From positions 1,120,136 through 1,184,135 of the forward strand of contig JBJBDC010000001.1 in the NCBI GenBank assembly GCA_047285535.1: a stretch of 64,000 nucleotides of DNA. Direction: 5' to 3'. Every line of letters begins with the position of its first letter. Position 1 is the first letter of the stretch. The position numbers were made by a program, and so were the translations under genes. Below, in pieces: positions 4,428 through 23,675 of this stretch. Source of the stretch: Synechococcus sp. (lineage in GTDB: Bacteria > Cyanobacteriota > Cyanobacteriia > PCC-6307 > Cyanobiaceae). The notes beneath the pieces are model-generated. The model saw only the letters and a program-made list of their open reading frames with translations, ran no database searches and had not been told where the DNA came from.

Positions 4428-7136
4428 ATGGCCAGTTCCATCGAAGCAATCTCGGATCTGCCCCAGAAAGAGTTACCAAACGAAATCCGCCGCTGTGAGC
4501 AGCGTGACTCCGGGAAGGTTCCATGGGACTTATGGGGGACTTACCTCAGCGACCGGCAGTGGGGGACCGTCCGGGAGGATTACTCCGCGGATGGCAATGC
4601 CTGGAAGTCCTTCCCATTCGATCAAAGCCATCTTCGGACTTACCGCTGGGGGGAGGATGGCCTGCTCGGGTTGTGCGACATGCAGGGAATGCTCTGTTTT
4701 GCCCCGGCACTTTGGAACGGTCGGGATTCAATCCTCAAAGAACGCTTGTTCGGCCTTGGGAATCCCGAAGGCAACCATGGTGAAGACATCAAAGACACCA
4801 TGTATCACTTGGCCGGAACCCCTACCGGCAGTTATTCCAAAGCCCTATACCGCTACCCCCAAAGCGCGTTTCCCTATCAACGTCTACGCGAAGAGAACCA
4901 ACGTCGTTCAAGGGCAGAATCCGAATTTGAGCTTGTTGACACTGGGATTTTTTCCAACAACAGCTTTTTCGACATTGAAATTGAATACGCCAAGGCCGAT
5001 GCAGAGGACATTTTTATTCGACTCTCCATCACCAATCAGGGTGCTGAGCCTGCTGAGCTTCATCTCCTGCCGAGTCTCTGGTACCGCAACACCTGGTCCT
5101 GGGGAGACAACAACAACCGACCAAGCCTTCATCTCTCAGGAGAAACACTGGTTTCCGAGGCGATCAACGGGCTTGGTTCCTACGAGCTGAGTTGCAGCGA
5201 GACAGGAACTTGGCTGTTCACCGAAAACGAAACCAACAGCGAAGCCTTATGGGCTCAACCTCTACCTCAGCCCTACGTCAAAGATGCCTTTCACCGATAC
5301 CTAATTCACGGACAAAGAGATGCGGTCAATCAGGGACAGCGAGGCAGCAAAGCCGCTCTACATCTTCATCACAACCTCAAAGCAGGAGAATGCTGGGTCA
5401 TCGACCTCCGTCTCCGCCGTCATCAAAACACGACAGGAAACGCATCTTTTGAGGCCTCAACCTCCACAAGCTTGATCAAACAGCGCCGTCAAGAGTGGAA
5501 GGAGCATCTGGAGTGGATCGCCCCAGGACTCAATGAAGAAGATCGAGCAATTCATGCCGCCGCCGGAGCTGGTTTGTTCTGGTGCAGAAAGTTTTACAAC
5601 TGGTACGTCGCACGCTGGCTAAGAGGAGACAGCACCGCAATCAGTCCGCCGAAACAGCGTTGGCTAACCGAAACAGCGTATTGGAAAACATTGCGCGCAC
5701 AAAACATCATCTCCATGCCTGACTGTTGGGAATACCCCTACTTCTGCCAATGGGATCTGATGTTTCACGCTGTGGCATTTGCTGAGTTCGATCCTGGCGA
5801 AGCAAAGCGACAGTCCCGCATGCTTAGGAAGGCGAGTTACACCGCCACTAGCGGACAATCGCCTGCCTATGAGTGGGCTCTGTCGGATGCCAATCCGCCG
5901 ATTGGGGCTTGGGCTGCTCTACGCATTTTTCAAATCAGTCGCCGCAACAACTGTGAAGGTGACTATTCCTTCTTACGTGCAAGTCTTCGAGAATTCCTAC
6001 TGGAATACGGATGGTGGGCCAACCGTACTGATCGCAATGGAGACAATCTATTTGAGGGAGGATTTTTAGGACTCGACAACATAGCTATTTTTGATCGACG
6101 CTATCCACTCAGAGACGGAAGCCGCATTGAGCAGTCCGATGGCACAGCCTGGATGGGATTATTTAGTCTAAATCTACTCCAAATAAGCGTTATTTTAGCC
6201 GAAGAAGACCGAAAAGAATATCTCGAAATATGCGAACGATTCATCAAAGATTTCAGCCGGATAACATTCTCTCTAAACAGCTCAAGCGGTCGTGGTTACG
6301 TAAACTGGGACGAGCAAGATGGATTTTATTATGATGTATTAAAAAGACCCGACAACTCCACTGACTACTTGAGAAATAGATCCATTAGTGGACTGATCCC
6401 TCTACTGGCTGTAGCAAGTTTTGATGCCAGTACAGTACAGGATATTCCATCGCTGGATATCAATAAAAGCCTCAAACAACTTGGGAAAGAACGGGGAGCT
6501 TCCTTTGACGCCATAGGCCATCTCGGCGCTTGGCATCGCAATCGCGTTCTATTCTCGATCGTCCCTCCTGCGAGGCTCAAACGAATTCTCAAGAGAGTAT
6601 TTGATGAAGACGAGTTTCTCTCTCCCTATGGGATCAGAAGTCTTTCTAAAATCTACGAATCAGAACCTTATTCCTATCAGCAGGGTGATGAATATGCCAC
6701 AATTACCTACACCCCTGGTGACAGCCCTGTTGCCATGTTTGGAGGAAATTCAAACTGGCGCGGGCCAGTTTGGATGCCAATTAATTTTCTTCTTATCGAA
6801 GCACTTCAGAAATATGGGCACTTTTTTGGCGAAGATTTCAAGATGGAATTCCCGACAGGATCAGGGGAAGAAATGACTCTCTGGGAAATTTCCCTCGAAC
6901 TGGAGAAACGATTAATCGGAATCTTTAGGCGCGATCAAAACCAGCGAAGAGCTTTTAATGGAGGAGTTGAGCTCTTCCAGAAGGACCCACTTTGGCGTGA
7001 TTTATTCCTTTTCAATGAATATTTTCATGGGTGTAATGGGTCAGGAGTAGGAGCAAGTCATCAAACAGGATGGACGGCAATCGTCGCCAAAATGATCACT
7101 CAACTTCAGCGACACCAGCCTATTAACCAGCCATGA
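4428..7136 (+). CDS. MGH1-like / GH63 family glycoside hydrolase (alpha-glucosidase or glycosylglycerate hydrolase type)
   Basis: About 900 aa. Motifs WGTVREDYS, MPDCWEYPYFCQWDLMFH, FEGGFLGLDNI, GGNSNWRGPVW and FNEYFHG..G.GASHQTGWT. Confidence 0.9.
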   Translation: MASSIEAISDLPQKELPNEIRRCEQRDSGKVPWDLWGTYLSDRQWGTVREDYSADGNAWKSFPFDQSHLRTYRWGEDGLLGLCDMQGMLCFAPALWNGRDSILKERLFGLGNPEGNHGEDIKDTMYHLAGTPTGSYSKALYRYPQSAFPYQRLREENQRRSRAESEFELVDTGIFSNNSFFDIEIEYAKADAEDIFIRLSITNQGAEPAELHLLPSLWYRNTWSWGDNNNRPSLHLSGETLVSEAINGLGSYELSCSETGTWLFTENETNSEALWAQPLPQPYVKDAFHRYLIHGQRDAVNQGQRGSKAALHLHHNLKAGECWVIDLRLRRHQNTTGNASFEASTSTSLIKQRRQEWKEHLEWIAPGLNEEDRAIHAAAGAGLFWCRKFYNWYVARWLRGDSTAISPPKQRWLTETAYWKTLRAQNIISMPDCWEYPYFCQWDLMFHAVAFAEFDPGEAKRQSRMLRKASYTATSGQSPAYEWALSDANPPIGAWAALRIFQISRRNNCEGDYSFLRASLREFLLEYGWWANRTDRNGDNLFEGGFLGLDNIAIFDRRYPLRDGSRIEQSDGTAWMGLFSLNLLQISVILAEEDRKEYLEICERFIKDFSRITFSLNSSSGRGYVNWDEQDGFYYDVLKRPDNSTDYLRNRSISGLIPLLAVASFDASTVQDIPSLDINKSLKQLGKERGASFDAIGHLGAWHRNRVLFSIVPPARLKRILKRVFDEDEFLSPYGIRSLSKIYESEPYSYQQGDEYATITYTPGDSPVAMFGGNSNWRGPVWMPINFLLIEALQKYGHFFGEDFKMEFPTGSGEEMTLWEISLELEKRLIGIFRRDQNQRRAFNGGVELFQKDPLWRDLFLFNEYFHGCNGSGVGASHQTGWTAIVAKMITQLQRHQPINQP

Positions 7137-7590
7137 GACAGCTTGGTGCTACGCCGATAAAGTTGAATTATGGTTTTCTCTAAAACCTAATGACCCTCTC
7201 CACCCAACAAGCGCATGATCGATGAAAGATTGCATTCAACATGAGGTGTTTGATGTCATCATCGACGAGTAGTTGAGCTGTGAATGCAGCCCTGATAAAT
7301 ACACTGGGCTGATGGCGAGCACGCAACTGTGGCCTCTGTCTCCTCGAAAGATTTGAGGCACCCTTTCGAGCCATCTGAACAATGAGGGGGAGCCTGCAAT
7401 TGAAATGAATGAATGCATGAATCCATGACCTCGAATCCAGAAAGTTGGACACGGCTGAGTGAATACGTCAATCTGCTTCCGTAGAGACCGACAGGAGAGC
7501 TCCTGAAAGCGAACCTGAAATGACGGCCGGCCCGTCTTTCGAGATGAATCAAGCAGCAATAGACCGAGCAGATCCCTTTTGGAGACACCC

Positions 7591-9237
7591 ATGACAACAC
7601 CCCCCGTTCAAGCCCAAGAGCATGCTTGGAACACCCTTGCTAAAGAGCAAATCCGGTCGTCTGCTCGCTTAACAACGATCGAACCCCAGGGTGAAGAGTT
7701 TGATGTTGTCATTATTGGCAGTGGAGCTGGAGGTGGAACTCTGGCCAGGGCTCTTGCTGATTCTGGTCATTCGATCCTGATCCTCGAGCGCGGTGGCTGG
7801 CTTCCGAGAGAACCTCAGAATTGGGATCCGGTCGAAGTGTTCCAAAACGACCGTTACGTCTCCAAAGATCTATGGGAAGACAAAAACGGGGCAACCTTCC
7901 AACCAGGAAGTCATTACTTCGTTGGCGGTGCTTCCAAAATGTATGGCGCTGCCCATTTCAGGCTTCGCGAACGGGATTTCGAATCGGTGATGCACGTTGA
8001 CGGGGTATCCCCGGAATGGCCTCTTAAATACGACGTCTTTGAGCCCTATTACCGCAAAGCGGAAGAGTGGTATCACGTTCATGGGCTACGGGGTGAAGAT
8101 CCCTATGAACCACCTGCATCCTCTCCCTATCCCTATGAACCCATCAGCCATGAGCCACGGATGCAAAAGCTGGTTGATGATCTTCGTTCAGCGGGGTTAA
8201 GACCCTTTCACCAACCCACTGGCGTTGCTCTCAACGAATCTGCTCCAGCATTTAGTGACTGCGTACGCTGCAACCGGTGCGATGGTTTCCCTTGTCTTGT
8301 GCATGCCAAAGGGGATGCAGAAGTGATGGGTGTTAGGCCTGCATTAACGCATGACAACGTCAACCTTTTGACCAATGCCGAGGTTGTTCGACTCAATACC
8401 GACCCTACTGGTCATGAAGTAAGCAACGTTGTTGTAAATCACGAAGGGAAAGAACTTCATTTCAAAGGGAAGATTGTTGTGATCTCTGCAGGTGCTGCTA
8501 ATTCTGCGCGGCTTCTTCTAATGTCAGCGAATGAAGCACATCCTAACGGCCTAGCCAACAGCTCAGATCAAGTCGGAAGAAACTATATGTATCACAACTG
8601 TAAAGCTGTTGTGGCTCTAGCTCATGAACCCAATCACACCGTCTTTCAAAAAACGGTTGCCATTAATGATTGGTACTTCGGAGACAAAGACTTCGACTTC
8701 CCCATGGGGCATGTACAAATGACAGGCAAAACAAATGGAGCCATGATGAAAGGTTATAAGCCTCGACTTACAGCTCTAGCGCCAACATGGAGCATGGACA
8801 AAGTCGCAGAACATTCACTTGACTTCTGGATGCAAACAGAAGATTTGCCTAGGGCTGAGAATCGGATCAGCGTAAATCGTCAAGGAAAGATTCGTCTCAA
8901 CTACACCCCTACAAACAATCAAGCCTCTAAAGAATTGATGGGAAGACTAGAAGGTTTGCTGGATAAGCTGTATTTGAAAAATCATTTAGCGGAAAGGCAG
9001 ATTTATTTCGCATCAGCGATGGAGATTGCTGCTGTAGGTCATCAGTGCGGCACCTGTCGATTTGGCGAGGACCCAGCAACATCAGTTCTGAATCTGAACT
9101 GCAGGACCCACGACCTGGACAATCTTTACGTGGTTGACACCAGCTTCTTCCCCAGCAGCGCAGCTGTGAATCCTTCCTTAACAGCTGTGGCCAATGCCAT
9201 CCGCGTTGCAGACCACCTCAAAGAAAGACTGGGTTGA
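7591..9237 (+). CDS. GMC family FAD oxidoreductase with Cys-rich (putative Fe-S) motif
   Basis: FAD motif IIGSGAGGG, Cys cluster CVRCNRCDGFPC, catalytic His in GHQCGT and Asn in VNPSLT. RBS GGAGA at 7581. Confidence 0.92.
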   Translation: MTTPPVQAQEHAWNTLAKEQIRSSARLTTIEPQGEEFDVVIIGSGAGGGTLARALADSGHSILILERGGWLPREPQNWDPVEVFQNDRYVSKDLWEDKNGATFQPGSHYFVGGASKMYGAAHFRLRERDFESVMHVDGVSPEWPLKYDVFEPYYRKAEEWYHVHGLRGEDPYEPPASSPYPYEPISHEPRMQKLVDDLRSAGLRPFHQPTGVALNESAPAFSDCVRCNRCDGFPCLVHAKGDAEVMGVRPALTHDNVNLLTNAEVVRLNTDPTGHEVSNVVVNHEGKELHFKGKIVVISAGAANSARLLLMSANEAHPNGLANSSDQVGRNYMYHNCKAVVALAHEPNHTVFQKTVAINDWYFGDKDFDFPMGHVQMTGKTNGAMMKGYKPRLTALAPTWSMDKVAEHSLDFWMQTEDLPRAENRISVNRQGKIRLNYTPTNNQASKELMGRLEGLLDKLYLKNHLAERQIYFASAMEIAAVGHQCGTCRFGEDPATSVLNLNCRTHDLDNLYVVDTSFFPSSAAVNPSLTAVANAIRVADHLKERLG

Positions 9238-9729
9238 TCAGCCCAAAAGGGCTTGAAGCTTAGGGGCCACAAATAAAAGATCAAAGCTGAAAGGACCACC
9301 TCCACTCGTCATCAGGACAAGACACATCACCACATAGACAGCAGCTTTCTCCCAGCTTGGCGGCTCCCCGACTCCCATGGGGCCGGCGTAGTCGCCCTCA
9401 GGGATCTGAAAGGGATCAGGGGCAATGAATGGAGAACCTAGGCTGATCTCCAGAACCATTGCATAAACCATTGACACAGCGATTGCCGCTGCGGCCAAGG
9501 GAGTCAACACTCCAGCAATCAGAGCGATTCCTCCCGCCCACATTGAAAAAGCCGAGAGAAAACAAAGCCATGCAGGCGTCTTCATCGCCGCGGCCCAAGT
9601 GTTCAGATTGATCATTTTGGGCCAGCCGTGACGAATGAAGACCAGGCCTGTGAACAACCTCAAAACAAGCAAGCCTCCACTGGCCGGACCATTCGGTACT
9701 GGAGGCACTATCAGGGAAACAAAGTCCAC
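9238..9729 (-). CDS. DoxX family membrane protein
   Basis: Motifs LLVLRLFTGLVFIRHGWPK, GVLTPLAA and GGGPFSFD. Confidence 0.85.
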   Translation of the reverse strand: MDFVSLIVPPVPNGPASGGLLVLRLFTGLVFIRHGWPKMINLNTWAAAMKTPAWLCFLSAFSMWAGGIALIAGVLTPLAAAAIAVSMVYAMVLEISLGSPFIAPDPFQIPEGDYAGPMGVGEPPSWEKAAVYVVMCLVLMTSGGGPFSFDLLFVAPKLQALLG

Positions 9730-9790
9730 CGATCAACAAGCATTTTCCAAACAGTAGAAACACTTAAGAGCGTCAACATTAAGGATTCGT

Positions 9791-10630
9791 TTAAGACTGA
9801 ATCCAGAGTCGATGGCCATCCGGATCGCTTCGAAGTCGTCCTTCACCAGCACCTGGTGCATGCACGAGAATCTGAGCGTAGAGCGCATTCTGCGGCAGCA
9901 GAGAGGCTGCCGAGGGTTGTAGTGGCTTCGGCTGGAGATAACGCAGAAACTCCACGCCACAGGGAGATGAACCACGCAATCCATGAATCGCCACCTGCGC
10001 GTTCGTCAGAGCATCGAGACGCTCCTGCTCAACACCTTTGTTGAGTGTGGCGTAGCGCAGTTGCAAGCCGAGCTCCACGCCATAGAACTGCAAACTGGAA
10101 TCACTGTCGCTAACAGCGATTGCAGTGTGGTCAATGCCCTGGAATAGAGGTGCATCAGGCTGCTGCCAGCGGGAATCGCCTTGATCGGCAGGAAACCATA
10201 GAAGTTCCATGGCATGACCAGCAGCATTGCGAAACTTCCATGCAGCCACACCGTTAGGTAACCACTGCGGAGATTCGGAGATCGCTGAGACAAGGGGGAT
10301 TAACTGCTCTACCGCGCGATGCATGTCGCTGACAACAATCGCCACGTGCTGGAACCAGAGGGTATTGGACGGACCAGGGTCAGTATCGATACGCGAATCG
10401 GCGCCCTCAAAGGTCACATAGTCGAGACGTTCCTTGCCCAACCGGTGATGTCGAACCACAGCTCTGCCCTCACTGAGCCCAAAACGTCGGTGGAGGGCTT
10501 CTCCCTGAACGACTGACTGCCCTTCATCAACAACGCCAAGAACTTCCAACAATGGATCAACACTTCCGGGCCTTGGCAAACTGAATGCCACCCCTTCAAC
10601 AGATAGGTCCTGGTAATACCTATCAACCAT
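9791..10630 (-). CDS. VOC/glyoxalase superfamily protein (tandem domains)
   Basis: Repeated VOC motifs WFQHVAIVVSDM, FRNAAGHAMEL, GIDHTAIAVSD...SLQFY and SDPDGHRL. Confidence 0.8.
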   Translation of the reverse strand: MVDRYYQDLSVEGVAFSLPRPGSVDPLLEVLGVVDEGQSVVQGEALHRRFGLSEGRAVVRHHRLGKERLDYVTFEGADSRIDTDPGPSNTLWFQHVAIVVSDMHRAVEQLIPLVSAISESPQWLPNGVAAWKFRNAAGHAMELLWFPADQGDSRWQQPDAPLFQGIDHTAIAVSDSDSSLQFYGVELGLQLRYATLNKGVEQERLDALTNAQVAIHGLRGSSPCGVEFLRYLQPKPLQPSAASLLPQNALYAQILVHAPGAGEGRLRSDPDGHRLWIQS

Positions 10631-10733
10631 GGTGATGTGACCAGAACTGACTTTGTCTTAGCGCCGTTTACGCACGAAGCACTGCCGTGTTCAGTAAAAC
10701 TCGCTATTGAATGTCTGTTCTGTCCAGACTCCC

Positions 10734-11534
10734 ATGACCACTCAGGTTCCCAAGGCAATGAACTCTCTTTGTCTTCGAGATAAAGTAGTCATTGTGACCG
10801 GCGGCAATTCCGGTATTGGTAAAGCAATCGTAGAAGCTGTAGGCGCTCTAGGAGCAAAAGTGGTTATCGACTACCGCTCCCATCCCGATCGTACAGAGGC
10901 ACTGCTCGAGGAGATCGGTGAGCTAGGAGGCCAGGCCATCGGAGTCCAAGCTGATGTTTCCAAACTCGAGGACCTTCAGTACCTCATTGAAACCGCAGTG
11001 AAGACCTTCGGCAGGGTAGACGTCATGGTGAACAACGCCGGTATCGAAACCCGCACCTCCATCCTCAACACCACCCCTGAGGATTTCGACCAGGTGATGA
11101 ACGTCAATCTGCGCGGTGTTTTCTTCGCCACCCAGTACGCTGCGAAACAGATGATCGCCCAAGGAAGCGGTGGACGGATCATCAACATTTCCTCGGTTCA
11201 CGAGGATTGGCCGATGCCCGACAACACGCCTTACTGCGTAGCCAAGGGCGGTGTGCGCATGCTTACCCGCACCGCCGGCGTTGAATTGGCCAGCAAAGGC
11301 GTATCCATTGTGAACCTGGGCCCAGGCGCAGTGGCTACGCCGATCAACGACTCCACGATGAACAACCCTGAGCTGCTTGCCAAGCTGAATGCCGCCATTC
11401 CCATGGGGCGAATGGCTGATCCGAAGGAAATCGCCTCTGTGGTGGCGTTCCTCGCCAGCGACGGTTCCAGTTACATGACAGCCACCAGCGTGTTCGCTGA
11501 CGGCGGCATCATGATGAGCAGTCCCGGACTCTGA
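10734..11534 (+). CDS. SDR oxidoreductase, glucose 1-dehydrogenase-like
   Basis: TGGNSGIG, NNAG, ISSVHE, YCVAK (YxxxK) and GPGAVATPIN. The SSVHE and GPGA.xTPIN motifs match Bacillus-type Gdh. Confidence 0.85.
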   Translation: MTTQVPKAMNSLCLRDKVVIVTGGNSGIGKAIVEAVGALGAKVVIDYRSHPDRTEALLEEIGELGGQAIGVQADVSKLEDLQYLIETAVKTFGRVDVMVNNAGIETRTSILNTTPEDFDQVMNVNLRGVFFATQYAAKQMIAQGSGGRIINISSVHEDWPMPDNTPYCVAKGGVRMLTRTAGVELASKGVSIVNLGPGAVATPINDSTMNNPELLAKLNAAIPMGRMADPKEIASVVAFLASDGSSYMTATSVFADGGIMMSSPGL

Positions 11535-11949
11535 GCTCAAAAGCCTCGAATCCTGCACGGGCGATCGCGAGATCTTGATCAGGCGTCATCCCTGACACGC
11601 CGATCGCCCCCATTACCTCTCCCTGGAAGCGAAATACCAGTCCACCTGCCATCAAGGCACAGGGCTGATGAAGAACACCCTGAAGAGACAGTAAAGCGGT
11701 GCGACCAGCTGCAATCGACTGTTCAACGAAGACGCTATCCGATCCAGTCAGGGCCGCTGTGCGTGCCTTTGCCGCTGAAGCCTCCACACTCGCAACTGAA
11801 GCACCATCAAGCCGGCGAAACGTGATCAATATCCCAGCGGCATCCACTAGAGCGATCGACACGCGTGCTGACATCTGCTGAGCCATGACCATGGCCGCAT
11901 CAACAATGAGATCCGCATCGGCAAGATCCAAGCAGCGAATCATATGCAT
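11509..11949 (-). CDS. GlcG/HbpS family heme-binding protein
   Basis: Motifs VSIALVDAAG, RLDGA...AAKARTAA and GGLV...GAIGVSG. Confidence 0.85.
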   Translation of the reverse strand: MHMIRCLDLADADLIVDAAMVMAQQMSARVSIALVDAAGILITFRRLDGASVASVEASAAKARTAALTGSDSVFVEQSIAAGRTALLSLQGVLHQPCALMAGGLVFRFQGEVMGAIGVSGMTPDQDLAIARAGFEAFELRVRDCSS

Positions 11950-11953
11950 TGAT

Positions 11954-14796: not shown

Positions 14797-16473
14797 CTAG
14801 ACAGAGCTCTTGTGAATCTGAGGCAAGTGATTCACAGCCTGCAAAAGCACCTCATAGCGTTTCTCGCTGACATGAGTCTTTGGAAGAAGATCAAGCAACT
14901 TGAGTTTCTCCAAGCGCTTGCGAGTGGCTCCTGGGAGAACCACCAAATAAACAGAACGACCCACTTCAATTGCTTCCTTAATTGCATTTTCAAGAGCAAG
15001 TGATGCCGTAACGCCGAGGTGAGAAACCTCACTGAGATCAAACAACACAGCCTCACATTCTTCGATAGCGTTATGCTCTCGATTGATAGTTTTGGCCACA
15101 CCAAAAATCATTGGCCCAGTGAGCTGAAAGAGCAACAGCCGACCTGAAGCCCTATCCATTAATTCTTGCTCGTCTGGAGGAAGAGTTACATCATCATCAG
15201 TTGTGCTTATGGTTTTTACCCCCTTTGACTGAAGAGACGTCATCCGTTCAATCGTCAGCACGTTTGCGACAAAGACCCCAATAAATACAGCCCAAATCAG
15301 ATCAACAAGAACGGTAAGACCAATCACTCCATAAGTAATACATGCCGCCTTAATCGACAGATGATGCGCCCGACTTAGGAAACTCCAGTCAATGATGTCA
15401 AAGCCAACCTTAAGTGCAATCCCGGCAAGTACGGCCAGAGGAATTAGTGAAGCCAAAGGGGCTGCCACCAAAATAACAAGCATCAGAATCAATGCTCTAA
15501 TAATTCCGGAGAGTGCGGAACGGCCACCCGCCTGAATATTGACAACCGTTCCCATCGTCGCTCCAGCTCCAGGCAATCCACCGAACAAACCGGAGACCAA
15601 ATTACCAAGTCCCTGACCAATTAATTCTTTATTCGAATTATGTTCCGTGCGCGTTAGACTATCAGCCACCACAGAAGTAAGAAGGGCATCAATACAACCA
15701 AGCATGCCCAATACGGCTCCATTTACAACCATTAACCGCAACAAATCTGGGGTTATCCCTGCAAATGAAGGAGGCTGAAAATTGGGAAAGTCCGCTGAGA
15801 ATTCAGGAATACGGCTTAATTCAATATTCGAAAACAGGGTCAGGGAAAGACCTGTCCCAACAACCAGAGCGAGCAACTGAGGGGGGCAAAAACGCTTCCA
15901 GGCTTCAGGTGTGAACCAAAGAATCAACAACGTGATGAGCGAAAGCAAGAGCTCGAGCGGCCTTACATCTTCAATCAACTGGGGAAGACTGGAAAGAGTG
16001 CCAATCACTCCACCAGGGGGACTGCTCTGCCCCAAAAAAGGAGCCAGCTGAAGGATCACCAAAATCACACCAATTCCAGACATAAAGCCTGAAATCACGG
16101 TGTAAGGCATCATCGTGATGTATCGGCCCAAGCGACAAAGACCAAACAGAATCTGAAAAAGACCGGCAAGCATCACAACCATGAAGGCCAGAGCCAAAGC
16201 CGTACCTCGATCTGGGATTTGGCTGGTGAAGTTGAGGATGACTGCAGTGAACACAACAGTCATAGGACCAGTGGGTTCAGAGATGAGCGTGGACGTGCCG
16301 CCAAATAGAGCCGCCACCATCCCAATGATCACAGCGCCCCATAGGCCAGCAGCAGCACCTGCACCAGAAGCCACTCCAAAAGCCAACGCCATCGGAAGGG
16401 CAACCACAGCGGCTGTAAGCCCACCAAAAGCATCACCTCGGAGGTTGCGGGTGCTGATGTAATTCAGAAACAC
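14797..16473 (-). CDS. bicA: SulP/SLC26 anion transporter with STAS domain (BicA-like bicarbonate transporter)
   Basis: GGLTAAVVALPMALAFGVASG, ISEPTGPMT, GAGATMGT and a C-terminal STAS domain (GPMIFG). Substrate is inferred from family membership only. Confidence 0.8.
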   Translation of the reverse strand: MFLNYISTRNLRGDAFGGLTAAVVALPMALAFGVASGAGAAAGLWGAVIIGMVAALFGGTSTLISEPTGPMTVVFTAVILNFTSQIPDRGTALALAFMVVMLAGLFQILFGLCRLGRYITMMPYTVISGFMSGIGVILVILQLAPFLGQSSPPGGVIGTLSSLPQLIEDVRPLELLLSLITLLILWFTPEAWKRFCPPQLLALVVGTGLSLTLFSNIELSRIPEFSADFPNFQPPSFAGITPDLLRLMVVNGAVLGMLGCIDALLTSVVADSLTRTEHNSNKELIGQGLGNLVSGLFGGLPGAGATMGTVVNIQAGGRSALSGIIRALILMLVILVAAPLASLIPLAVLAGIALKVGFDIIDWSFLSRAHHLSIKAACITYGVIGLTVLVDLIWAVFIGVFVANVLTIERMTSLQSKGVKTISTTDDDVTLPPDEQELMDRASGRLLLFQLTGPMIFGVAKTINREHNAIEECEAVLFDLSEVSHLGVTASLALENAIKEAIEVGRSVYLVVLPGATRKRLEKLKLLDLLPKTHVSEKRYEVLLQAVNHLPQIHKSSV

Positions 16474-16570
16474 CAGAGTCTCGTCTTTGAATTTGGGTGA
16501 TGCTAAGACCCTTCCGCTTTGCGTTCGTTGAGACCGACAAGGAAAATAGGTCTAAACAAGTAAGCAGTCG

Positions 16571-17674
16571 ATGCCTGACTTTCTGATCTCTGCCCTCGAA
16601 CTGCTGGTCGGAATCGGACTCCTATTCGGCGGCGGTGAATTATTTGTTCAGGGTGCGGTCATCCTCGCCGTCATCCTCGGAGTGCCGCAGCTGGTCATTG
16701 GCCTAACGGTGGTTTCACTTGGTACCAGTGCTCCTGAATTCTTCGTCAGCATCGGTTCGGTCCTTCATGGGGCAGATGCTCTGGCTGTCAGCAACGTGGT
16801 TGGCAGCAACATTTTCAATGTTTTGGTCGTCCTTGGTTGCAGCGCCCTCGTCCTGCCACTGCGGGTGGAAAGCCGTTTGGTGAGAAGGGATGTTCCCCTT
16901 CTCCTAGCCGTGTCTGCGGCTGCATGGGGCATGGCATCAGCGGGACGAGTCACCTGGCAATCAGGGGTCGCTCTTTTGCTGGGTCTTGTTATCAACACTG
17001 TCTGGGAAATCCGGACCGCAAGGGAAGAACCAGAGGAAATGGAGCCTGCAGAGCCAGAGATTGACTTAGGCAGCGCACAACAAGGCTGGCTTAAAGCAAT
17101 GGGCCGCCTTTTGCTCGGCATTGTTGTCCTTGGTTTCGGAGCTCACCTTCTTGTGAAGGGAGCAACCGCCGTTGCCCTGAGTCTCGGAGTCAGTGAGGCC
17201 GTCATCGGGCTCACCATTGTTTCGGCTGGAACCTCCATGCCTGAACTGATTACCTCTTTGGTCGCGGCCTTGCGAGGGAGAACGGATCTCGCCATTGGCA
17301 ATGTTGTAGGCAGTTGTCTTCTGAATCTGCTTCTCGTACTTGCAGGAGGTGCGTTGGCATCAGGAGCACAGGGGCTTCATGTCACGACCGATTTAATCAA
17401 TGACGACATGCCTGTGATGATTTTGACCAGCCTTGCTTGCCTTCCAATCTTCTGGACAAAAGGACGAATTTCTAGACTTGAAGGTGGCTTACTCGTTGGT
17501 TTGTACATTCTGTACATCACTGACAACGTTCTACCCCGCACCGGACTCTCTTCTTGGTCGGATGAATTTCGCCTCATCATGCTTTGTGTTGTCTTACCAG
17601 CCGTTGTCGTGCTGATCGTGGTACAAGCCGCTCGCTATTGGAGACAACTAAAACGCCAAGGTCCTCAAACCTAA
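16571..17674 (+). CDS. Calcium/sodium antiporter (YrbG/CaCA family)
   Basis: Duplicated alpha repeats GLTVVSLGTSAPE...NVVGSNIFN and GLTIVSAGTSMPE...GNVVGS. Confidence 0.92.
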   Translation: MPDFLISALELLVGIGLLFGGGELFVQGAVILAVILGVPQLVIGLTVVSLGTSAPEFFVSIGSVLHGADALAVSNVVGSNIFNVLVVLGCSALVLPLRVESRLVRRDVPLLLAVSAAAWGMASAGRVTWQSGVALLLGLVINTVWEIRTAREEPEEMEPAEPEIDLGSAQQGWLKAMGRLLLGIVVLGFGAHLLVKGATAVALSLGVSEAVIGLTIVSAGTSMPELITSLVAALRGRTDLAIGNVVGSCLLNLLLVLAGGALASGAQGLHVTTDLINDDMPVMILTSLACLPIFWTKGRISRLEGGLLVGLYILYITDNVLPRTGLSSWSDEFRLIMLCVVLPAVVVLIVVQAARYWRQLKRQGPQT

Positions 17675-17761
17675 ACAATGACTTCAGCTTGTATTCCGTG
17701 ATGAAGGGATGACTGCTGAGCAAAAGCTGTTCATCCTGGAAAGGCCTAGATCGGCTTGGCG

Positions 17762-18262
17762 ATGCTTGAGCTGCTTCCCCCGCTCAACGACAAAAATCTT
17801 CCATGGATCGACGTTATCCATCCAATCGTGGTGCATTTCGTGATCGCTATGGCTCTGATCACGGTGGTGTTTGACCTGATTGGAGTTCTCACTCGGAGAC
17901 ACAACCTCTTTGAGGTGAGCTTCTGGAATTTGGTAGTGGCGACCGTTGCCATCTTCGTAGCCATCATCTTCGGACAGATTGAGGCAGGGTTGGCAACTCC
18001 TTATGGAGCATCAAGAGACATTTTGAATTACCACAGCACCCTTGGCTGGTCGCTGGCTGGAGTACTCGGCCTCCTTACAGGTTGGAGATACGTCGTCAGG
18101 CAAAAAGATCCAACTGTTTTGCCATCAGGATTTCTTGTCATTGATTCAATCCTGGCGGTTTTGGTGTTCTGTCAGGTCTATTTAGGAGACAAACTTGTTT
18201 GGGTTTATGGACTCCACACGGTGCCCGTGGTTGAAGCCGTGCGTAGCGGAGCTCTGTCATGA
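17762..18262 (+). CDS. DUF2231 family membrane protein 1
   Basis: HPIVVHFVIA motif, four TM segments and LGDKLVWVYG. Overlaps the next ATG. Confidence 0.85.
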   Translation: MLELLPPLNDKNLPWIDVIHPIVVHFVIAMALITVVFDLIGVLTRRHNLFEVSFWNLVVATVAIFVAIIFGQIEAGLATPYGASRDILNYHSTLGWSLAGVLGLLTGWRYVVRQKDPTVLPSGFLVIDSILAVLVFCQVYLGDKLVWVYGLHTVPVVEAVRSGALS

Positions 18263-18879
18263 TTTTTGGGGTCACCATTCCATCACCGGTGAATGAAATA
18301 GCCGACAAATTAGGAGCAAATGATCTCCCCTACGCAATTCCGATACATCCTAATTTAGTGCATTTAACTATTGGCCTATTTGCTATCGGAATAGCCTTTG
18401 ATTTTGCCGGCGCGTTTTATCCCTTAGAGAAAAGGGTCTTCCGCTTCTTAGCACTTCCAGCAACCCGAAGCGGTTTTCATGATGTCGGCTGGTACAACGT
18501 TCTTGCGTGTAGCGTGATCACCTTTTTCACCGTTGCCGCTGGCTTTTACGAAATGCTCCTTGCAGTTCCATTGCAAGGGATTCGCAGCATCATTGGCCAA
18601 AATGCAATCGACACAATGCTGTGGCATGCGATCGGAGGGGTCGCACTGCTCCTCATCATTGTGGGGATGGCGATCTGGCGAGGATTTCAGCGATTTTTGT
18701 GGCGTAAAGACTACGGGCGTCAGGTGAGTTGGCTTTATCTCGGATGCGGAGCTGTAGTGCTTGTCGCCATGGGCGTACATGGAAGTCTTGGGGCATGGCT
18801 TGCCAGTGAATTTGGCGTTCATATCACTGCAGATCAACTTCTTGCAGCCGGTGCCGATCTCAATGAGGTGTTGCCATGA
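18259..18879 (+). CDS. DUF2231 family membrane protein 2
   Basis: HPNLVHLTIG motif, WHAIGG and LGAWLASEFGVH. ATGA-coupled on both sides. Confidence 0.85.
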   Translation: MIFGVTIPSPVNEIADKLGANDLPYAIPIHPNLVHLTIGLFAIGIAFDFAGAFYPLEKRVFRFLALPATRSGFHDVGWYNVLACSVITFFTVAAGFYEMLLAVPLQGIRSIIGQNAIDTMLWHAIGGVALLLIIVGMAIWRGFQRFLWRKDYGRQVSWLYLGCGAVVLVAMGVHGSLGAWLASEFGVHITADQLLAAGADLNEVLP

Positions 18880-19811
18880 GTACCGCTACTCCAAAGAAGG
18901 GACCAAGCATCGGTGCGATTGTGATCATCACAATGGCCATTGCGATCAATTTGGCCATTTCCAAACTGATGGCGAACTGGTCTCTTAGTTGGTTTCCACC
19001 CCAAGCCTCGAGTGCAGCTCCTTACGTCGACAACCTATTCGCACTGGAGACGGGGATCGGCTCATTCATTTTTTTTGGTTGCACCGGCTTTATGGGCTGG
19101 GTGTTGTTGTTCAACAGGGCTGGCAAGTATGACGAAAGCGATGGGGCCCCGATCGAGGGAAATACCAAATTAGAAATCACCTGGACGATCATTCCCCTGG
19201 TGACAGTCTTTCTGATCGCCACGTATTCGATGAACGTCAATATGAAGCTTCAAACTCTCGGACCGAAGCACAAATACGCCATCGGATCTGATCCGACAGT
19301 CCTAATGGAGGCAGACCCCATTGCTGATGTAGGCCCAATTAATGTTATTGCCCGCCAGTGGAGCTGGGAATTCATCTATCCCAACGGAGTTCGGAGCTCA
19401 GAGCTACATCTCCCGATTGATCAACGTGCGAATTTCCACATGATCTCGGAGGACGTTCTGCATAGTTTCTTTGTGCCGGCCTTCCGGCTCAAACAAGACA
19501 TCATCCCTGGGAGCATCATTTCTTACAGCCTCACTCCCACGAAGGAAGGACGATTTCGACTTCGGGACGCCATGTTCAGCGGCGCTTATTTCTCACAGAA
19601 CCAGACCGACGTGATTGTCGAAACCGAGCAGGCTTTCGCCGAATGGTTAAAGACAACAGCACAACAGCCACTGCAACAGGGTCTTGATCCAAGTCGTGCT
19701 CTCTATGACCGCCGCATCGCACGCGGTGACAAGGGCTGGGCCACGGTACCGCCAGCTCCCGCACCGATGGTGAACGACCCCGGTGATCCCTCCATTCCTC
19801 ACGACGCCTGA
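18876..19811 (+). CDS. ctaC: Heme-copper oxidase subunit II, CuA-less (ARTO type)
   Basis: Motifs LEITWTIIP, ARQWSWEF and DVLHSFFVP. The CuA ligand segment (CxExCGxxHxxM) is replaced by DAMFSGAYFSQN. Confidence 0.92.
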   Translation: MSTATPKKGPSIGAIVIITMAIAINLAISKLMANWSLSWFPPQASSAAPYVDNLFALETGIGSFIFFGCTGFMGWVLLFNRAGKYDESDGAPIEGNTKLEITWTIIPLVTVFLIATYSMNVNMKLQTLGPKHKYAIGSDPTVLMEADPIADVGPINVIARQWSWEFIYPNGVRSSELHLPIDQRANFHMISEDVLHSFFVPAFRLKQDIIPGSIISYSLTPTKEGRFRLRDAMFSGAYFSQNQTDVIVETEQAFAEWLKTTAQQPLQQGLDPSRALYDRRIARGDKGWATVPPAPAPMVNDPGDPSIPHDA

Positions 19812-19819
19812 GACGTGCC

Positions 19820-21508
19820 ATGACAAGCAACACCTACGACCTCCGCATTCTCAAGGCACCCCATCCAGTTCCTGGAGCACCGGACAACTGGAAACGCTTC
19901 TTCAGTTTCAACACCGACGCAAAGGTGATTGGAATCCAATACATCGCTACAGCACTGTTCTTCCTTCTCGTGGGCGGACTCCTGGCCATGATCGTGAGGG
20001 GCGAATTGATCACGCCTCCCGCTGATCTTGTCGACCCAAGCGTCTACAACGGCCTCTACACCATGCACGGAACAGTGATGTTGTTCCTTTTTCTATTCCC
20101 AATCCTTAACGGCTTTAACAACCTATTGATTCCGACGATGATCGGGGCACCGGACATGGCATTTCCAAAGCTGAATGCCGCCGCGTTCTGGCTCGTGCCG
20201 GTGTTTTCAATCGTCTTAATGGGGAGCTTTTTCGCCCCCGGTGGACCCGCTTCATCGGGATGGTGGTCGTACCCACCAATGAGTCTGCAAAATCCACTCG
20301 GCCATTTCATCAATGGGGAGTTTCTATGGATCCTTGCAATAGCACTCTCCGGCATCTCCTCGATCATGGGTGCCATCAATTTCGTGACGACCATCATCCG
20401 GATGAGAGCTCCAGGGATGGGTTTCTTCCGAATGCCGATTTTCGTCTGGACTGCATGGGCAGCCCAGACCATCCAGTTGATAGGTCTACCCGCGCTCACT
20501 GGCGGAGCGGTCATGCTGTTGTTTGACCTCAGCTTCGGTACCAGCTTTTTCCGGCCGGAGGGTGGCGGTGATCCAGTTTTATTCCAGCATTTTTTCTGGT
20601 TCTATTCCCACCCTGCCGTTTACGTGCTGGTGCTTCCTGTGTTTGGCATTTTCTCAGAGCTCTTTCCCGTGTATTCGCGTAAGCCCCTTTTTGGCTATCG
20701 CTTTGTGGCAATCGCCTCCTTTGGAATCACCTTTCTCAGCCTGATTGTTTGGGCTCACCACATGTTTTACACAGGCACACCGAACTGGATGCGTCACATC
20801 TTCATGTTCACCACGATGCTCATTGCCATACCCACTGGAGTGAAGGTTTTCGCCTGGCTGGGAACACTCTGGGCAGGCAATTTGCGCTTGAGCACACCGA
20901 TGCTGTTCTGCATCGGAGGTCTGATCAACTTTATTTTTGCAGGCATTACTGGAGTGATGCTTGCCACAGTTCCAATTGATATTCATGTAGGCAACACCTA
21001 CTTTGTGGTAGCTCACTTCCACTATGTGATCTTCAACACCATTGTTTTTGGGGTTTTCGCTGGTATTTACCACTGGTTTCCAAAGTTCACTGGAAAGATG
21101 TATTACGAAGGTCTTGGGAAAGTCCATTTCGCACTCACATTCATCGGTGCCACACTCAACTGGCTTCCACTCCACTGGGCTGGGTTGCTGGGCATGCCCC
21201 GACGTGTTGCCTCCTATGACCCGGAATTCGCCATTTGGAACGTGATTGCAAGCATCGGCGCTTTCATGCTTGGCGTTGCCTCGATCCCCTTCATCCTGAA
21301 CATGGTGAGTTCCTGGGCTCGCGGACCCAAGGCTCCTCCCAACCCCTGGCGAGCAATCGGCCTGGAGTGGCTCCTTCCATCCCCACCTCCTGCCGAAAAC
21401 TTTGAAGACGATATTCCAACTGTGATTAGTGAGCCCTACGGCTACGGATTGGGGAAACCCTTAGTTGAGGACCAGGAATTCTATGTCCGCCGTTCCATGG
21501 AGGCCTAA
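19820..21508 (+). CDS. ctaD: Heme-copper oxidase subunit I (ARTO type)
   Basis: Heme/CuB ligand motifs TMHGT, WFYSHPAVY, VWAHHM and VAHFHYV. Confidence 0.96.
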   Translation: MTSNTYDLRILKAPHPVPGAPDNWKRFFSFNTDAKVIGIQYIATALFFLLVGGLLAMIVRGELITPPADLVDPSVYNGLYTMHGTVMLFLFLFPILNGFNNLLIPTMIGAPDMAFPKLNAAAFWLVPVFSIVLMGSFFAPGGPASSGWWSYPPMSLQNPLGHFINGEFLWILAIALSGISSIMGAINFVTTIIRMRAPGMGFFRMPIFVWTAWAAQTIQLIGLPALTGGAVMLLFDLSFGTSFFRPEGGGDPVLFQHFFWFYSHPAVYVLVLPVFGIFSELFPVYSRKPLFGYRFVAIASFGITFLSLIVWAHHMFYTGTPNWMRHIFMFTTMLIAIPTGVKVFAWLGTLWAGNLRLSTPMLFCIGGLINFIFAGITGVMLATVPIDIHVGNTYFVVAHFHYVIFNTIVFGVFAGIYHWFPKFTGKMYYEGLGKVHFALTFIGATLNWLPLHWAGLLGMPRRVASYDPEFAIWNVIASIGAFMLGVASIPFILNMVSSWARGPKAPPNPWRAIGLEWLLPSPPPAENFEDDIPTVISEPYGYGLGKPLVEDQEFYVRRSMEA

Positions 21509-21512
21509 TTCA

Positions 21513-22118
21513 ATGACAGCAACCAACAACGAATTCCCGATCAATCATCAACCCGGTCATATCCAACATGAAGGCCATAACCTCACAGGTTTTATCATTT
21601 TCCTGTGTTCAGAAAGCATCATTTTTCTTGCATTTTTTACAGGGTTTGCGCTCCTGAAAATCACAGCACCCGAATGGCTCCCCGAAGGAGTTGATGGGCT
21701 CGAAACACGCATGCCTTTGATCAACACGATTATTTTGGTGAGTTCAAGCTTTGTAGCCTATTTCGCAGAGCGTTATTTGCATCGAGAGAACCTATGGGGG
21801 TTTAGAGCTTTTTGGCTTCTCACGATGGCAATGGGCACGTACTTCGTTTACGGCCAATATGTCGAATGGTCTGAGCTTCAATTCAGTTTGAGCAGTGGAG
21901 TTTTTGGAGGAACGTTTTATCTCCTAACTGGGTTCCATGGATTACATGTCATCACAGGAATCTTGCTGATGGCGTTGATGTTGTTTCGCTCCTTCAAGCC
22001 AAACAATTATGCAAAAGGTGAAATGGGCGTGACGTCTGTAAGTCTTTTTTGGCATTTTGTAGACGTTATTTGGATCATCCTTTACCTGTTGATCTATGTC
22101 TGGCAACGTACCAGCTGA
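21513..22118 (+). CDS. ctaE: Heme-copper oxidase subunit III (ARTO type)
   Basis: Motifs FLCSESIIF, LTGFHGLHV and FWHFVDVIW. Confidence 0.95.
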   Translation: MTATNNEFPINHQPGHIQHEGHNLTGFIIFLCSESIIFLAFFTGFALLKITAPEWLPEGVDGLETRMPLINTIILVSSSFVAYFAERYLHRENLWGFRAFWLLTMAMGTYFVYGQYVEWSELQFSLSSGVFGGTFYLLTGFHGLHVITGILLMALMLFRSFKPNNYAKGEMGVTSVSLFWHFVDVIWIILYLLIYVWQRTS

Positions 22119-22157
22119 TCAATCTGAATTTTTAGATCTGCTGTCATTCCTCCAATC

Positions 22158-23675
22158 ATGATCATCGACGACCGCAACTACGACGTCATCATTATCGGCA
22201 GCGGTGCCGGTGGGGGCACCCTTGCAGGTGCCCTGAGTCGGAAAGGTCATTCCGTTCTCATGCTTGAGCGAGGAGGGGCCATGGCCCTCGAAGATCAAAA
22301 TGTTGCAGATGTGGACTTATTTCGCAAAGATCGTTATCACCCAAAGAATGAACGCTGGTTTGGGCCTGACGGGGATCCGTTTGCTCCACAAACCAATTAC
22401 TCCCTTGGTGGCAACACCAAAATCTGGGGCGCAGTGTTGGAGCGCATGCGCGAAGAGGATTTCAATGAATTACCTCTTCAAGAAGGCGTTTCCCCTGCTT
22501 GGCCGATTCTTTACGACCAGCTAGCTCCTTATTACACCGCAGCTGAAAAGCTATACAGAGTTCACGGTTGTTCGGGTATCGACCCCACCGAACCAGCCCG
22601 GTCTACTCCTTTTGAGTATGAACCAAAACCGCTGGTTTCTTTTCTTGAGCCACTGCGTGAAGCACTCAAACGTCAAGGATGTCAGCCGTATGACTTGCCT
22701 TTGAGCTGGTCCAACAGCACAGAAGACCCAAGTGGTGATTCACAGCTGTACGGCATCGACAATGCCGATCACTCCAAACTCACAATCAAAACTCAATCAA
22801 AAGTCACGCGATTACATGTCAATCCACTCGGACGCTCTGTAAAAGGTGTTGAAGCTGATGTTGCTGGAGAAACTTGGCTGTTCACTGCAGACTTGATCGT
22901 GCTTGCCGCCGGCGCCATTAATACTCCTGCCATTCTGTTGAGGTCCATCTCGAACCATCATCCCCGCGGCCTAGGCAATAAATCTGATCAGGTTGGTCGC
23001 AACTTGATGAATCTCCAACTCACCTCAATTCTGCAGCGGGCGACCGAACGAAACGACGGTAGCTATGCACGATCGCTTGGAATTAATGACTACTACTGGG
23101 GAGATAAAAACGTCTCTTTCCCTCTTGGCCACATTCAAACCGCAGGAGGAGTTTTACAGGATGCCCTATTTGCAGAATCGCCACCAGTCCTTTCCCTTGT
23201 CACCAAAATGATTCCAGATGTTGGGCTGGAGCGACTGGCATCTCGATCGGTAGCTTGGTGGGCCATGACCGAAGTCTTACCAGACCCACAGAACAAGGTT
23301 TGGCTGAACAACGATCAAATCCGAATCAACTACATCCACAACAACCGCGAAGCCCATGATCGACTGGTTTACCGCTGGATTGACACGCTCAAGGCCATCG
23401 AAGCAGACCCTCTCACTCGGGTCGTGAGCACGGCACCCACCCACCCTCGGGGGGAAGCTCCCTTAAGTGCGGTTGGGTATGCGTGCGGCACATGCTGTAT
23501 GGGAACCGATCCAGCAGCTTCTGTAGTCGACCTCTCCGGGAAATGTCATGAGCTCGACAACCTATATGTCGCCGATACCAGCGTATTCCCGAGTTGTCCA
23601 AGCGTTGGGCCAGGTCTGACAACCATCGCCTTATCGCTCCGGCTAGCTGAAACCCTCAGTGAACGCATCACCTGA
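22158..23675 (+). CDS. GMC family oxidoreductase paralogue with degenerate active site
   Basis: Retains IIGSGAGGG, SDQVGRN and LDNLYVADTS. The catalytic His position reads GYACGT, the Asn position reads VGPGLT, and the Cys cluster is absent. Confidence 0.88.
   Translation: MIIDDRNYDVIIIGSGAGGGTLAGALSRKGHSVLMLERGGAMALEDQNVADVDLFRKDRYHPKNERWFGPDGDPFAPQTNYSLGGNTKIWGAVLERMREEDFNELPLQEGVSPAWPILYDQLAPYYTAAEKLYRVHGCSGIDPTEPARSTPFEYEPKPLVSFLEPLREALKRQGCQPYDLPLSWSNSTEDPSGDSQLYGIDNADHSKLTIKTQSKVTRLHVNPLGRSVKGVEADVAGETWLFTADLIVLAAGAINTPAILLRSISNHHPRGLGNKSDQVGRNLMNLQLTSILQRATERNDGSYARSLGINDYYWGDKNVSFPLGHIQTAGGVLQDALFAESPPVLSLVTKMIPDVGLERLASRSVAWWAMTEVLPDPQNKVWLNNDQIRINYIHNNREAHDRLVYRWIDTLKAIEADPLTRVVSTAPTHPRGEAPLSAVGYACGTCCMGTDPAASVVDLSGKCHELDNLYVADTSVFPSCPSVGPGLTTIALSLRLAETLSERIT

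Follow-up and report, generated by a model that had tools for sequence, protein, structure and literature searches.

What donates electrons to cyanobacteria's alternative respiratory terminal oxidase (ARTO), and what the enzyme is for, have been open questions since it was named; in PMC6616624 it is still presumed to be a quinol oxidase, and its subunit composition is called uncertain. A lead on what feeds it is offered by a 64,000-nucleotide stretch of Synechococcus sp., a marine-type picocyanobacterium (contig JBJBDC010000001.1, positions 1,120,136 to 1,184,135; hereafter the window), which belongs to a 3.03-Mb genome in one contig. Two gene blocks lie between positions 4425 and 23675 of the window, namely module A, the ARTO operon, and module B, a sugar cassette headed by a GH63-type glycoside hydrolase. 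A preliminary description, made from the sequence alone, proposed that both are halves of one sugar-to-respiration module. The linkage that it proposed held up in synteny, in a nested distribution across genomes and in recurrence with two unrelated oxidases, whereas sugar oxidation by the second of its two GMC flavoproteins (GMC2) did not. We regard it as evenly balanced whether modules A and B work as one branch leading from a sugar glycoside to oxygen. The gene-order link to a glycoside hydrolase and to a putative iron-sulfur (Fe-S) flavoprotein, GMC1, names candidate substrates and partners of ARTO.

Gene content was determined from a listing of open reading frames (ORFs) together with Pfam and NCBIfam scans of the stretch, and every gene that the preliminary description had named at 4425–23675 was present. 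Module A comprised six genes, all on the plus strand (17756–23675), whose adjacent stops and starts overlap or almost touch. DUF2231a, a protein of four transmembrane (TM) segments (17756–18262; PF09990, 124 bits against a cut-off of 26.4), is followed by its 4-TM paralogue DUF2231b (18259–18879; PF09990, 131 bits), the start of which overlaps the DUF2231a stop. Then come ctaC2, encoding an oxidase subunit II without the CuA motif (18876–19811; Pfam and motif check), ctaD2, encoding the heme-copper oxidase subunit I (19820–21508; PF00115, 512 bits), and ctaE2, encoding subunit III (21465–22118; PF00510, 122 bits). The ARTO-linked GMC-fold flavoprotein GMC2 closes the operon (22158–23675; PF00732 and PF05199 above cut-off), with its flavin adenine dinucleotide (FAD) motif retained. 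The genome has two COX1 genes, of which ctaD2 is the second, and ctaC2, ctaD2 and ctaE2 are contiguous. As had been proposed, subunit II is CuA-less: the motif C.E.C...H..M was found in none of 35 ctaC2 orthologues, including that of the window, and the genome's other subunit II (ctaC1), used as a control, carries CAELCGPYHGGM. Judged by its gene content, module A is the cyanobacterial ARTO operon in its full six-gene form.

In the cox3/qox operon of Anabaena PCC 7120 (alr2729-alr2730-coxB3-coxA3-coxC3) and in ctaCII-DII-EII of Synechocystis, too, subunit II is CuA-less and is encoded together with subunits I and III, separately from the main oxidase. The Anabaena operon has two extra genes before subunit II, according to the available text of PMC6616624, and two DUF2231 genes likewise precede it here. 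A GMC-fold gene closes the operon in the window and in 34 mapped loci; such a gene is not named for the Anabaena or Synechocystis operon in the part of PMC6616624 available. Unlike the ARTO of Anabaena and Synechocystis, that of the window's family is followed by the sugar cassette.

The conservation of module A was analyzed in 151 genomes of the window's family, each at least 90% complete. Orthologues of ctaC2 (48–100% identity) and of GMC2 (57–100%) occurred in exactly the same 92 genomes, and the 20 family loci retrieved all had DUF2231a-DUF2231b-ctaC2-ctaD2-ctaE2-GMC2 in one order and orientation. The 14 loci retrieved from further cyanobacterial families agreed in both respects, with a GMC2 of 46–52% identity. 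In a phylum sample of 301 genomes, 74 outside the family had DUF2231b; a full-length GMC2-type gene was present in 27 of these, lying within 6.5 kb of DUF2231b in 24 and on fragmented contigs in the remaining three. GMC2 was constant in the window's family and largely missing in family f7. On these distributions, we consider that the DUF2231 pair accompanies ARTO generally, with GMC2 as a frequent yet optional component. A single in-frame stop was also observed in the GMC2 match of each of seven genomes (G120, G080, G076, G031, G128, G146 and G116), TGA in two of genus g3 and TAG or TAA in five of g31; GMC2 may be decaying in some lineages, or the stops may fall at match ends. Furthermore, cytochrome bd genes adjoined the ARTO operon in two non-picocyanobacterial loci (L029, 41–2498; L064, 10008–12855).

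The preliminary description knew of no functional account of the whole module, and none was found in the literature searched; no paper was retrieved by a search combining ARTO with GMC or choline dehydrogenase. GMC goes unmentioned in the main text of PMC2799521, as do cytochrome, GMC, oxidase and trehalase in that of the Actinoplanes MRLGR paper (PMC7567727). The gene set itself has been tabulated, however. In a supplement of Doré 2023, one ecological cluster (Prochlorococcus cluster 16) comprises ctaC2/D2/E2, a pair of DUF2231 genes and a 'choline dehydrogenase-like flavoprotein', and the same rows minus the flavoprotein are also assigned to Synechococcus cluster 15; no functional reading is given there.

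Module B begins with a GH63/MGH1-like glycoside hydrolase of 903 aa (4425–7136, plus strand; PF22422, 67.1 bits against a cut-off of 27; PF03200, 45.1 against 22.4), followed by the FAD dehydrogenase GMC1 (7579–9237, plus strand; PF00732 and PF05199 above cut-off). GH63 orthologues (at least 59% identity) were present in 57 of the 151 family genomes, all of them among the 92 ARTO-positive ones, and in none of the 59 ARTO-negative genomes. GMC1 was found in 55 genomes, all of which had GH63. On the strand of GMC2, GH63 begins 6–81 bp behind it in 45 of the 57 genomes (46 with G130, in which the gene is split), and it is on another contig in five. The other six, namely that of the window, four more of its genus and G149, have it 12.8–19.3 kb upstream. 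The array ctaE2-GMC2-GH63-GMC1 was present in 13 of 20 family loci, followed by DoxX, VOC, SGL, cupin, SDR, HbpS and Nif11 genes in variable order. An independent distribution of the two blocks, set in the preliminary description as the outcome that would speak against one module, was not seen within the family; GH63 was nested in ARTO-positive genomes, and the profiling of gene neighborhoods and distribution linked the blocks by direct adjacency in these 45 of 57.

In the window, the two blocks are separated only by pyrC, a BicA-like SulP gene and a Ca/Na antiporter gene, as the gene calls confirmed, and the order upstream of module B is trpA, DUF3007, tRNA-Leu(UAA), then GH63. In locus L013, the left flank trpA-DUF3007-tRNA-Leu is as in the window and is followed by A, then B. 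Because this locus combines the window's flanks with an A-then-B order, the layout of the window is best read as a rearranged, split form of one ancestral array. The tRNA-Leu(UAA) gene (4277–4362, plus strand; Rfam, 55.8 bits; ARAGORN) was matched in loci L019, L013 and L069 too and is a conserved anchor after trpA-DUF3007, next to which the ARTO operon stands in other genera and block B stands here. It forms the left border of the ARTO array in L013 and L069. In L019, from the window's genus, the tRNA gene is followed directly by pyrC at a junction without B. These borders fit a scheme in which blocks have been gained, lost or rearranged at tRNA-Leu(UAA).

Next, we compared the two flavoproteins, which the preliminary description had taken for paralogues. 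Their homology was evident (36% identity over 497 residues, E 6e-107), and the three motifs that it had listed (SDQVGRN, IND[W/Y]Y[F/W]GDK.xxFP.GH.Q and LDNLYV.DTS) all occurred in both. The nearest solved relatives of both were the alpha subunit of Burkholderia cepacia FAD-dependent glucose dehydrogenase (BcGDH; PDB 6a2u, E 7.7e-41 for GMC1 and 9.1e-26 for GMC2) and Gluconobacter fructose dehydrogenase (FDH; 7w2j). In these enzymes, according to PMC6719666, a Cys-rich loop binds a 3Fe-4S cluster through which the FAD hands its electrons to a cytochrome c subunit. Over its whole length, GMC1 aligns to the catalytic subunit of these direct-electron-transfer complexes, BcGDH (gamma-alpha-beta) and FDH, and it shares their catalytic His/Asn pair and Cys loop. 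Its CxxCxxCxxxxC loop aligns to the 3Fe-4S ligand loop of BcGDH, although the spacing in BcGDH and FDH is CC-x4-C-x3-C; four Cys residues were present in 20 of 22 GMC1 sequences and three in two. The first catalytic site was His and the second was Asn in all 22. In 35 GMC2 sequences, by contrast, the first site was Y12 N9 H6 L3 S2 F2 G1 and the second G22 S9 P2 M1 T1, never Asn, and the Cys loop was deleted in 34. The FAD motif GxGxxG was found in 21 of 22 GMC1 sequences, one being truncated, and in 35 of 35 GMC2 sequences. At the position of the covalent-FAD His (BcGDH His105), GMC1 has Met, Leu, Val, Phe or Ile and GMC2 has Ile. Based on its nearest solved relatives, the aligned Cys loop and the invariant His and Asn, GMC1 looks like an active electron-exporting dehydrogenase. 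Unlike BcGDH and FDH, it is predicted to be cytoplasmic, and the window's protein has Met in place of the covalent-FAD His. GMC2 has lost both the catalytic His/Asn pair and the Fe-S loop; sugar oxidation by it is therefore unlikely, and we dropped it as an active sugar dehydrogenase.

A quick maximum-likelihood tree was computed from 69 rows chosen from 136 sequences and was rooted on a third, canonical GMC oxidoreductase of the genome (G000:C1:365500-365907, L047). All 28 ARTO-linked GMCs formed one clade (SH-like approximate likelihood ratio test, SH-aLRT, 100), which branches from inside the cyanobacterial GMC1-type enzymes with intact catalytic residues; four Nostocales-type members that still have the Cys loop are basal. 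The GMC1 of the window's family clustered with actinobacterial, acidobacterial and verrucomicrobial sequences (SH-aLRT 99), and a single cyanobacterial GMC1 clade was rejected in the approximately unbiased (AU) test (p 1.2e-40), for a group that had been named after the tree was seen. Since the tree places them in separate groups, GMC1 and GMC2 are not recent paralogues, and GMC2 is a derived descendant of an Fe-S sugar dehydrogenase that probably no longer acts as a dehydrogenase itself. Another GMC-fold flavoprotein, MftG, is proposed to feed the respiratory chain (PMC11778925, available text), and the weak NCBIfam matches of both GMCs were MftG models. However, their scores were 71–83 bits against a cut-off of 387, and mycofactocin genes were absent here. 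In two Nostocales-type genomes (L037, 6423–7946; L038, 12027–13652), a three-Cys GMC1-type gene has, immediately upstream and overlapping with it, a gene for a ferredoxin-reductase-like flavoprotein, which in L038 is fused to a Rieske 2Fe-2S domain. Such a protein may be a soluble redox partner of the GMC Fe-S cluster.

The linkage of sugar cassette and terminal oxidase was also observed beyond the family. In one genome of family f3, the DUF2231-ctaCDE operon has SDR-GH63 directly upstream and, 2.5 kb downstream, a GMC1-type gene, and in a second, SDR, GH63, cupin and VOC genes stand beside an ARTO-type operon. In family f7, the ARTO-type operon is followed by an NDH-2-like gene (type 2 NADH dehydrogenase), VOC, DoxX, SGL, SDR, a Rieske-ferredoxin-reductase fusion and GMC1. 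We then analyzed 48 non-cyanobacterial GMC1 loci from Actinomycetota, Acidobacteriota, Planctomycetota, Chloroflexota, Verrucomicrobiota and other phyla. Their GMC1-type genes were 40–63% identical to GMC1, and all 48 retained the His, the Asn and the Cys loop. GH63 homologues were present in 10 and SDR homologues (64–68% identity) in seven, and VOC, SGL and HbpS genes were frequent. The cytochrome bd genes cydA and/or cydB lay within 7 kb of the GMC1-type gene in 17 of the 48, of which 15 were labeled Actinomycetota, one was a duplicate under another label and one was from Limisphaerales. We would expect a random gene to lie so near cydAB only seldom. The typical order was G6PD (glucose-6-phosphate dehydrogenase)-GH15-GMC1-(NDH-2-like)-CydA-CydB, with divergent and convergent layouts too; the Limisphaerales (Verrucomicrobiota) locus had GH63-GMC1-MFS-SDR-CydAB, and one Acidobacteriota locus had a cytochrome-c-fused subunit II 2.8 kb downstream. 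The actinobacterial arrays, zwf-GH15-GMC-(NDH-2-like)-cydA-cydB in L084, L106, L087 and others, combine, as here, a terminal quinol oxidase with a GMC1-type Fe-S flavoprotein, a hydrolase of the alpha-glucosidase type and a sugar dehydrogenase linked to NAD(P). They differ in having cytochrome bd, not the heme-copper ARTO, and a GH15 hydrolase (trehalase-like, below the NCBIfam cut-off), with no DUF2231 and no GMC2. Judged by gene order, the linkage of sugar cassette and terminal oxidase is one that recurs with an unrelated oxidase. The bd-linked cassettes in soil Actinomycetota suggest a general, undescribed way to burn stored or osmoprotective glucosides. Contigs labeled Sulfopaludibacter and Rhizobium (among L050, L068 and L077/L078) carried a picocyanobacterial ARTO array at 63–65% identity, and two loci with identical gene maps were labeled Actinomycetota and Alphaproteobacteria; such oddly labeled contigs are probably mis-binned metagenome contigs.

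As for what the cassette might consume, the GH63-like protein is a candidate alpha-glucoside hydrolase acting on a compatible solute or a glycogen-derived sugar. Its closest relatives come from marine Synechococcus strains, its relatives are named 'glucosidase' or 'MGH1-like', and it has a weak PDB match to glucosidase I (E 8.6e-6). As in mannosylglycerate and glucosylglycerate hydrolases, the MGH1-like (alpha/alpha)6 catalytic domain and the GH63 C-terminal domain scored above Pfam cut-offs; however, the glucosylglycerate hydrolase equivalog NF047898 was not reached (18.8 bits against a cut-off of 550). Genes for a GlgX-type isoamylase, a GDE-type debranching enzyme and an MIP channel recur as neighbors, with GH15 and G6PD in Actinomycetota, and because of these neighbors glycogen or compatible-solute alpha-glucosides are pointed to. 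According to Kirsch 2019 (PMC6753628), marine Synechococcus make glucosylglycerol and are without gghA; that they degrade it by some unknown route 'cannot be excluded', and the GH63-like hydrolase is a candidate for this breakdown. The GghA (Slr1670) of Synechocystis has 885 aa (PMC5002435, available text) against 903 aa here, a similar length. A second GH63 paralogue class was also observed in the family (43–50% identity), which in genus g22 stands in tandem after GMC1 (L006, 12620–14872) and which occurs in two ARTO-negative genomes (G083 and G098) as well.

The proposed route would then start with the GH63-like hydrolase, which would cleave an alpha-glucoside, probably either a compatible solute or one derived from glycogen, and so free glucose. 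The sugar would be oxidized by the Gdh-like SDR (10707–11534, plus strand) and by GMC1 with its FAD and predicted Fe-S cluster, and a lactone would be opened by the SGL lactonase, of the SMP-30/gluconolactonase/LRE-like type (12240–13187, minus strand; PF08450, 145 bits). Electrons may leave GMC1 through a surface Fe-S cluster for the plastoquinone pool, possibly at the DoxX protein, and ARTO would oxidize the quinol and reduce oxygen. We infer the substrate, the direction and path of the electrons and the roles of GMC2, the DUF2231 pair and DoxX from sequence. The SDR is named as glucose 1-dehydrogenase-like from NF005559 (220.8 bits against a cut-off of 215); NF006493 (PRK08936) gave 257.5 bits against 420, and many further SDR models scored similarly. 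The DoxX-family membrane protein (9238–9729, minus strand; PF07681, 45.7 bits), encoded convergently with GMC1, is a candidate membrane or quinone partner, and its gene adjoins GMC1 in the window and in six of 14 GMC1-carrying family loci.

Several observations weigh against one branch from glucoside to ARTO. All functional readings are drawn from sequence and gene order. A marine metatranscriptome run (n=1) recovered 7% of the sampled words, as short contig pieces only, mainly of ctaD2 (20965–21458), and is silent on co-transcription and regulation. Module B was absent in 35 of the 92 ARTO-positive family genomes, and 31 of the 74 extra-family genomes with DUF2231b gave no GMC-family match at E ≤ 1e-30; therefore, neither B nor GMC2 is needed for ARTO. 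The loss of its catalytic pair also leaves GMC2 without an obvious part in the electron route. Regarding GMC1, the BcGDH and FDH complexes have a hitchhiker subunit with a twin-arginine translocation (Tat) signal and a triheme cytochrome c. Here, CxxCH occurred in no frame of at least 60 aa within 4000–24000, no twin-arginine N-terminus was present among the cluster proteins, and Pfam revealed neither a Tat-signal small subunit nor a cytochrome c. The region thus offers a GMC1 Fe-S cluster no acceptor of the BcGDH or FDH kind. B-type cassettes occur in heterotrophs without ARTO, and in the other cyanobacterial loci fetched they were mostly not beside it (L037, L039–L042). The names 'NDH-2-like' and 'trehalase-like' stand for matches below NCBIfam cut-offs. 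Finally, the family counts come from related genomes, so their independence is overstated, and one ancestral insertion of B beside A, with co-loss in streamlined genomes, would yield the same counts.

This last point leads to another explanation, that modules A and B are neighbors by descent only. Module B would then serve ordinary sugar catabolism in the cytoplasm, with NAD(P)H and gluconate as products, and would have been inserted once beside ARTO, near tRNA-Leu, in the family ancestor, with no private link to the oxidase. We hold this to be rather unlikely, though several points favor it. B-type cassettes stand without ARTO in many phyla, B adjoins a tRNA gene, and the nesting of family GMC1 with heterotroph sequences in the tree, with the AU rejection of the post hoc group, fits a mobile cassette. 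B was also often lost once apart from A, as GH63 was present in five of 10 g1 genomes (window included) and one of 10 g3 genomes. However, B without A was observed in none of the 151 genomes, and the same-strand gaps of 6–81 bp resemble co-transcription. Moreover, a single accident is insufficient for a linkage that recurs in other gene orders in families f3 and f7 and, in 17 of 48 non-cyanobacterial loci, with the unrelated bd oxidase.

The DUF2231 pair bears on a second explanation. DUF2231a and DUF2231b were 26% identical (E 3e-9) and are the only two copies in the genome. Among 30–35 orthologues, H22, H27, H93 and H154 were invariant in DUF2231a, as were H30, H35, H123 and H188 in DUF2231b. 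These His sites stand where TM1 (HPxxxH) and TM3 begin and behind TM4, with invariant acidic residues alongside. With the topology read from sequence by the positive-inside rule, the His and acidic residues are predicted on the non-cytoplasmic side, on which subunit II also has its CuA-less domain. The basic loops facing the cytoplasm were strongly conserved too. By speculation, the residues might form a metal or heme site in place of CuA. An AlphaFold2 (AF2) model of DUF2231b had a pLDDT of 80.4, and Foldseek of this model against the PDB gave nothing at E ≤ 0.001. In a wide structural search with DUF2231b, the best matches (Z 12.8) were unrelated four-helix bundles, inside the stated noise range for helical bundles, and oxidase subunit III pieces and cytochrome b561 (Z 9–11.6) were not prominent. 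Among longer DUF2231 proteins, one 448-aa match had an MFS domain, on a single 1.5-kb contig, and says little, and an Atlas search for fusion partners gave DUF2231 clusters only. Complex prediction for GMC2 with DUF2231a and DUF2231b scored 0.00 against a mark of 0.32, which is neutral for binding.

From these residues, module A could be seen as a device for iron acquisition or as an electron sink under iron limitation, with ARTO and the outward His of the DUF2231 proteins reducing Fe(III) or dumping electrons and module B as unrelated cargo. According to Doré 2023, the ARTO gene cluster of the most abundant phototrophs is enriched in ocean populations from low-iron waters, and a Synechocystis ctaD2/ctaE2 mutant with impaired Fe reduction and uptake is cited; the four invariant His and the acidic residues on the predicted non-cytoplasmic side of each DUF2231 protein would suit such a role. 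However, this explanation is silent on why GH63, GMC1 and SDR follow the operon in 45–46 of 57 genomes and on the bd-linked relatives. It is also compatible with a glucoside-to-ARTO branch, as a reductant is needed either way. Taken as a replacement for that branch, we judge it distinctly unlikely. A stronger form of the branch itself, which we rate as a long shot, would be a private chain from glucoside to oxygen in which the GMC1 Fe-S cluster delivers directly to an extended ARTO. There, GMC2 would act as an adaptor on the DUF2231 cytoplasmic loops and the eight outward His would form a metal centre replacing CuA, with the same design arising independently with cytochrome bd in Actinomycetota.

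Next to DoxX and on one strand with it, the window has a gene for a two-module VOC protein of the glyoxalase/dioxygenase fold (9791–10630, minus strand; PF00903, 27 bits), homologues of which adjoin GMC1-type genes in several phyla. Bacillus subtilis encodes MhqO (VOC) together with MhqP (DoxX-like) for hydroquinone resistance. Detoxification of quinones, hydroquinones or reactive carbonyls by module B, through VOC, DoxX, cupin and lactonase chemistry and with GMC1 and SDR acting on aromatic or carbonyl substrates, would match this adjacency and its recurrence, but it is very improbable given that the core common across phyla is a glycosidase (GH63 or GH15) with GMC1 and SDR or G6PD, that the glycogen-debranching genes GlgX and GDE are nearby, and that the nearest solved relatives of GMC1 are sugar dehydrogenases.

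The remaining features of module B were then mapped. The preliminary description had not listed the HbpS-like, Nif11-like and cupin genes or tRNA-Leu(UAA), the latter being the sole match of the Rfam scan. The Cupin_2 gene (13199–13654, minus strand; PF07883, 31.9 bits) is next to SGL, and PDB sequence searches with VOC, GH63 and cupin gave marginal matches only. The HbpS/GlcG-like (DUF336) gene (11509–11991, minus strand; PF03928, 93 bits) and the gene for a small Nif11-like protein (11954–12451, minus strand; TIGR03798, 50.2 bits against a cut-off of 32.3) overlap. The true start of the latter is probably internal, because the domain covers residues 82–150 and the 5' part overlaps SGL; its orthologue matches mostly span residues 46–165 or 82–165. 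Several family loci keep a Nif11-like leader-family gene in this place, with SGL on one side and the HbpS-like gene on the other.

The spacer between GH63 and GMC1 (7137–7578) is 442 bp here, compared with 79 bp in the same-genus locus L020 and mostly 15–90 bp elsewhere. It is not a multi-copy repeat, with one weak second match genome-wide. A minus-strand ORF of 118 aa in this spacer (7236–7592) had no family match in Pfam or NCBIfam and is probably no gene. In a sequence scan, promoter-like sites numbered six against 14.0 expected and terminator-like sites 19 against 20.5 expected, numbers that carry no information on promoters or terminators here. The SulP gene between the two blocks (14797–16473, minus strand) matched the BicA bicarbonate transporter equivalog with 849.7 bits, slightly below the cut-off of 880. 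Past module A, a glutathione reductase gene follows on the opposite strand.

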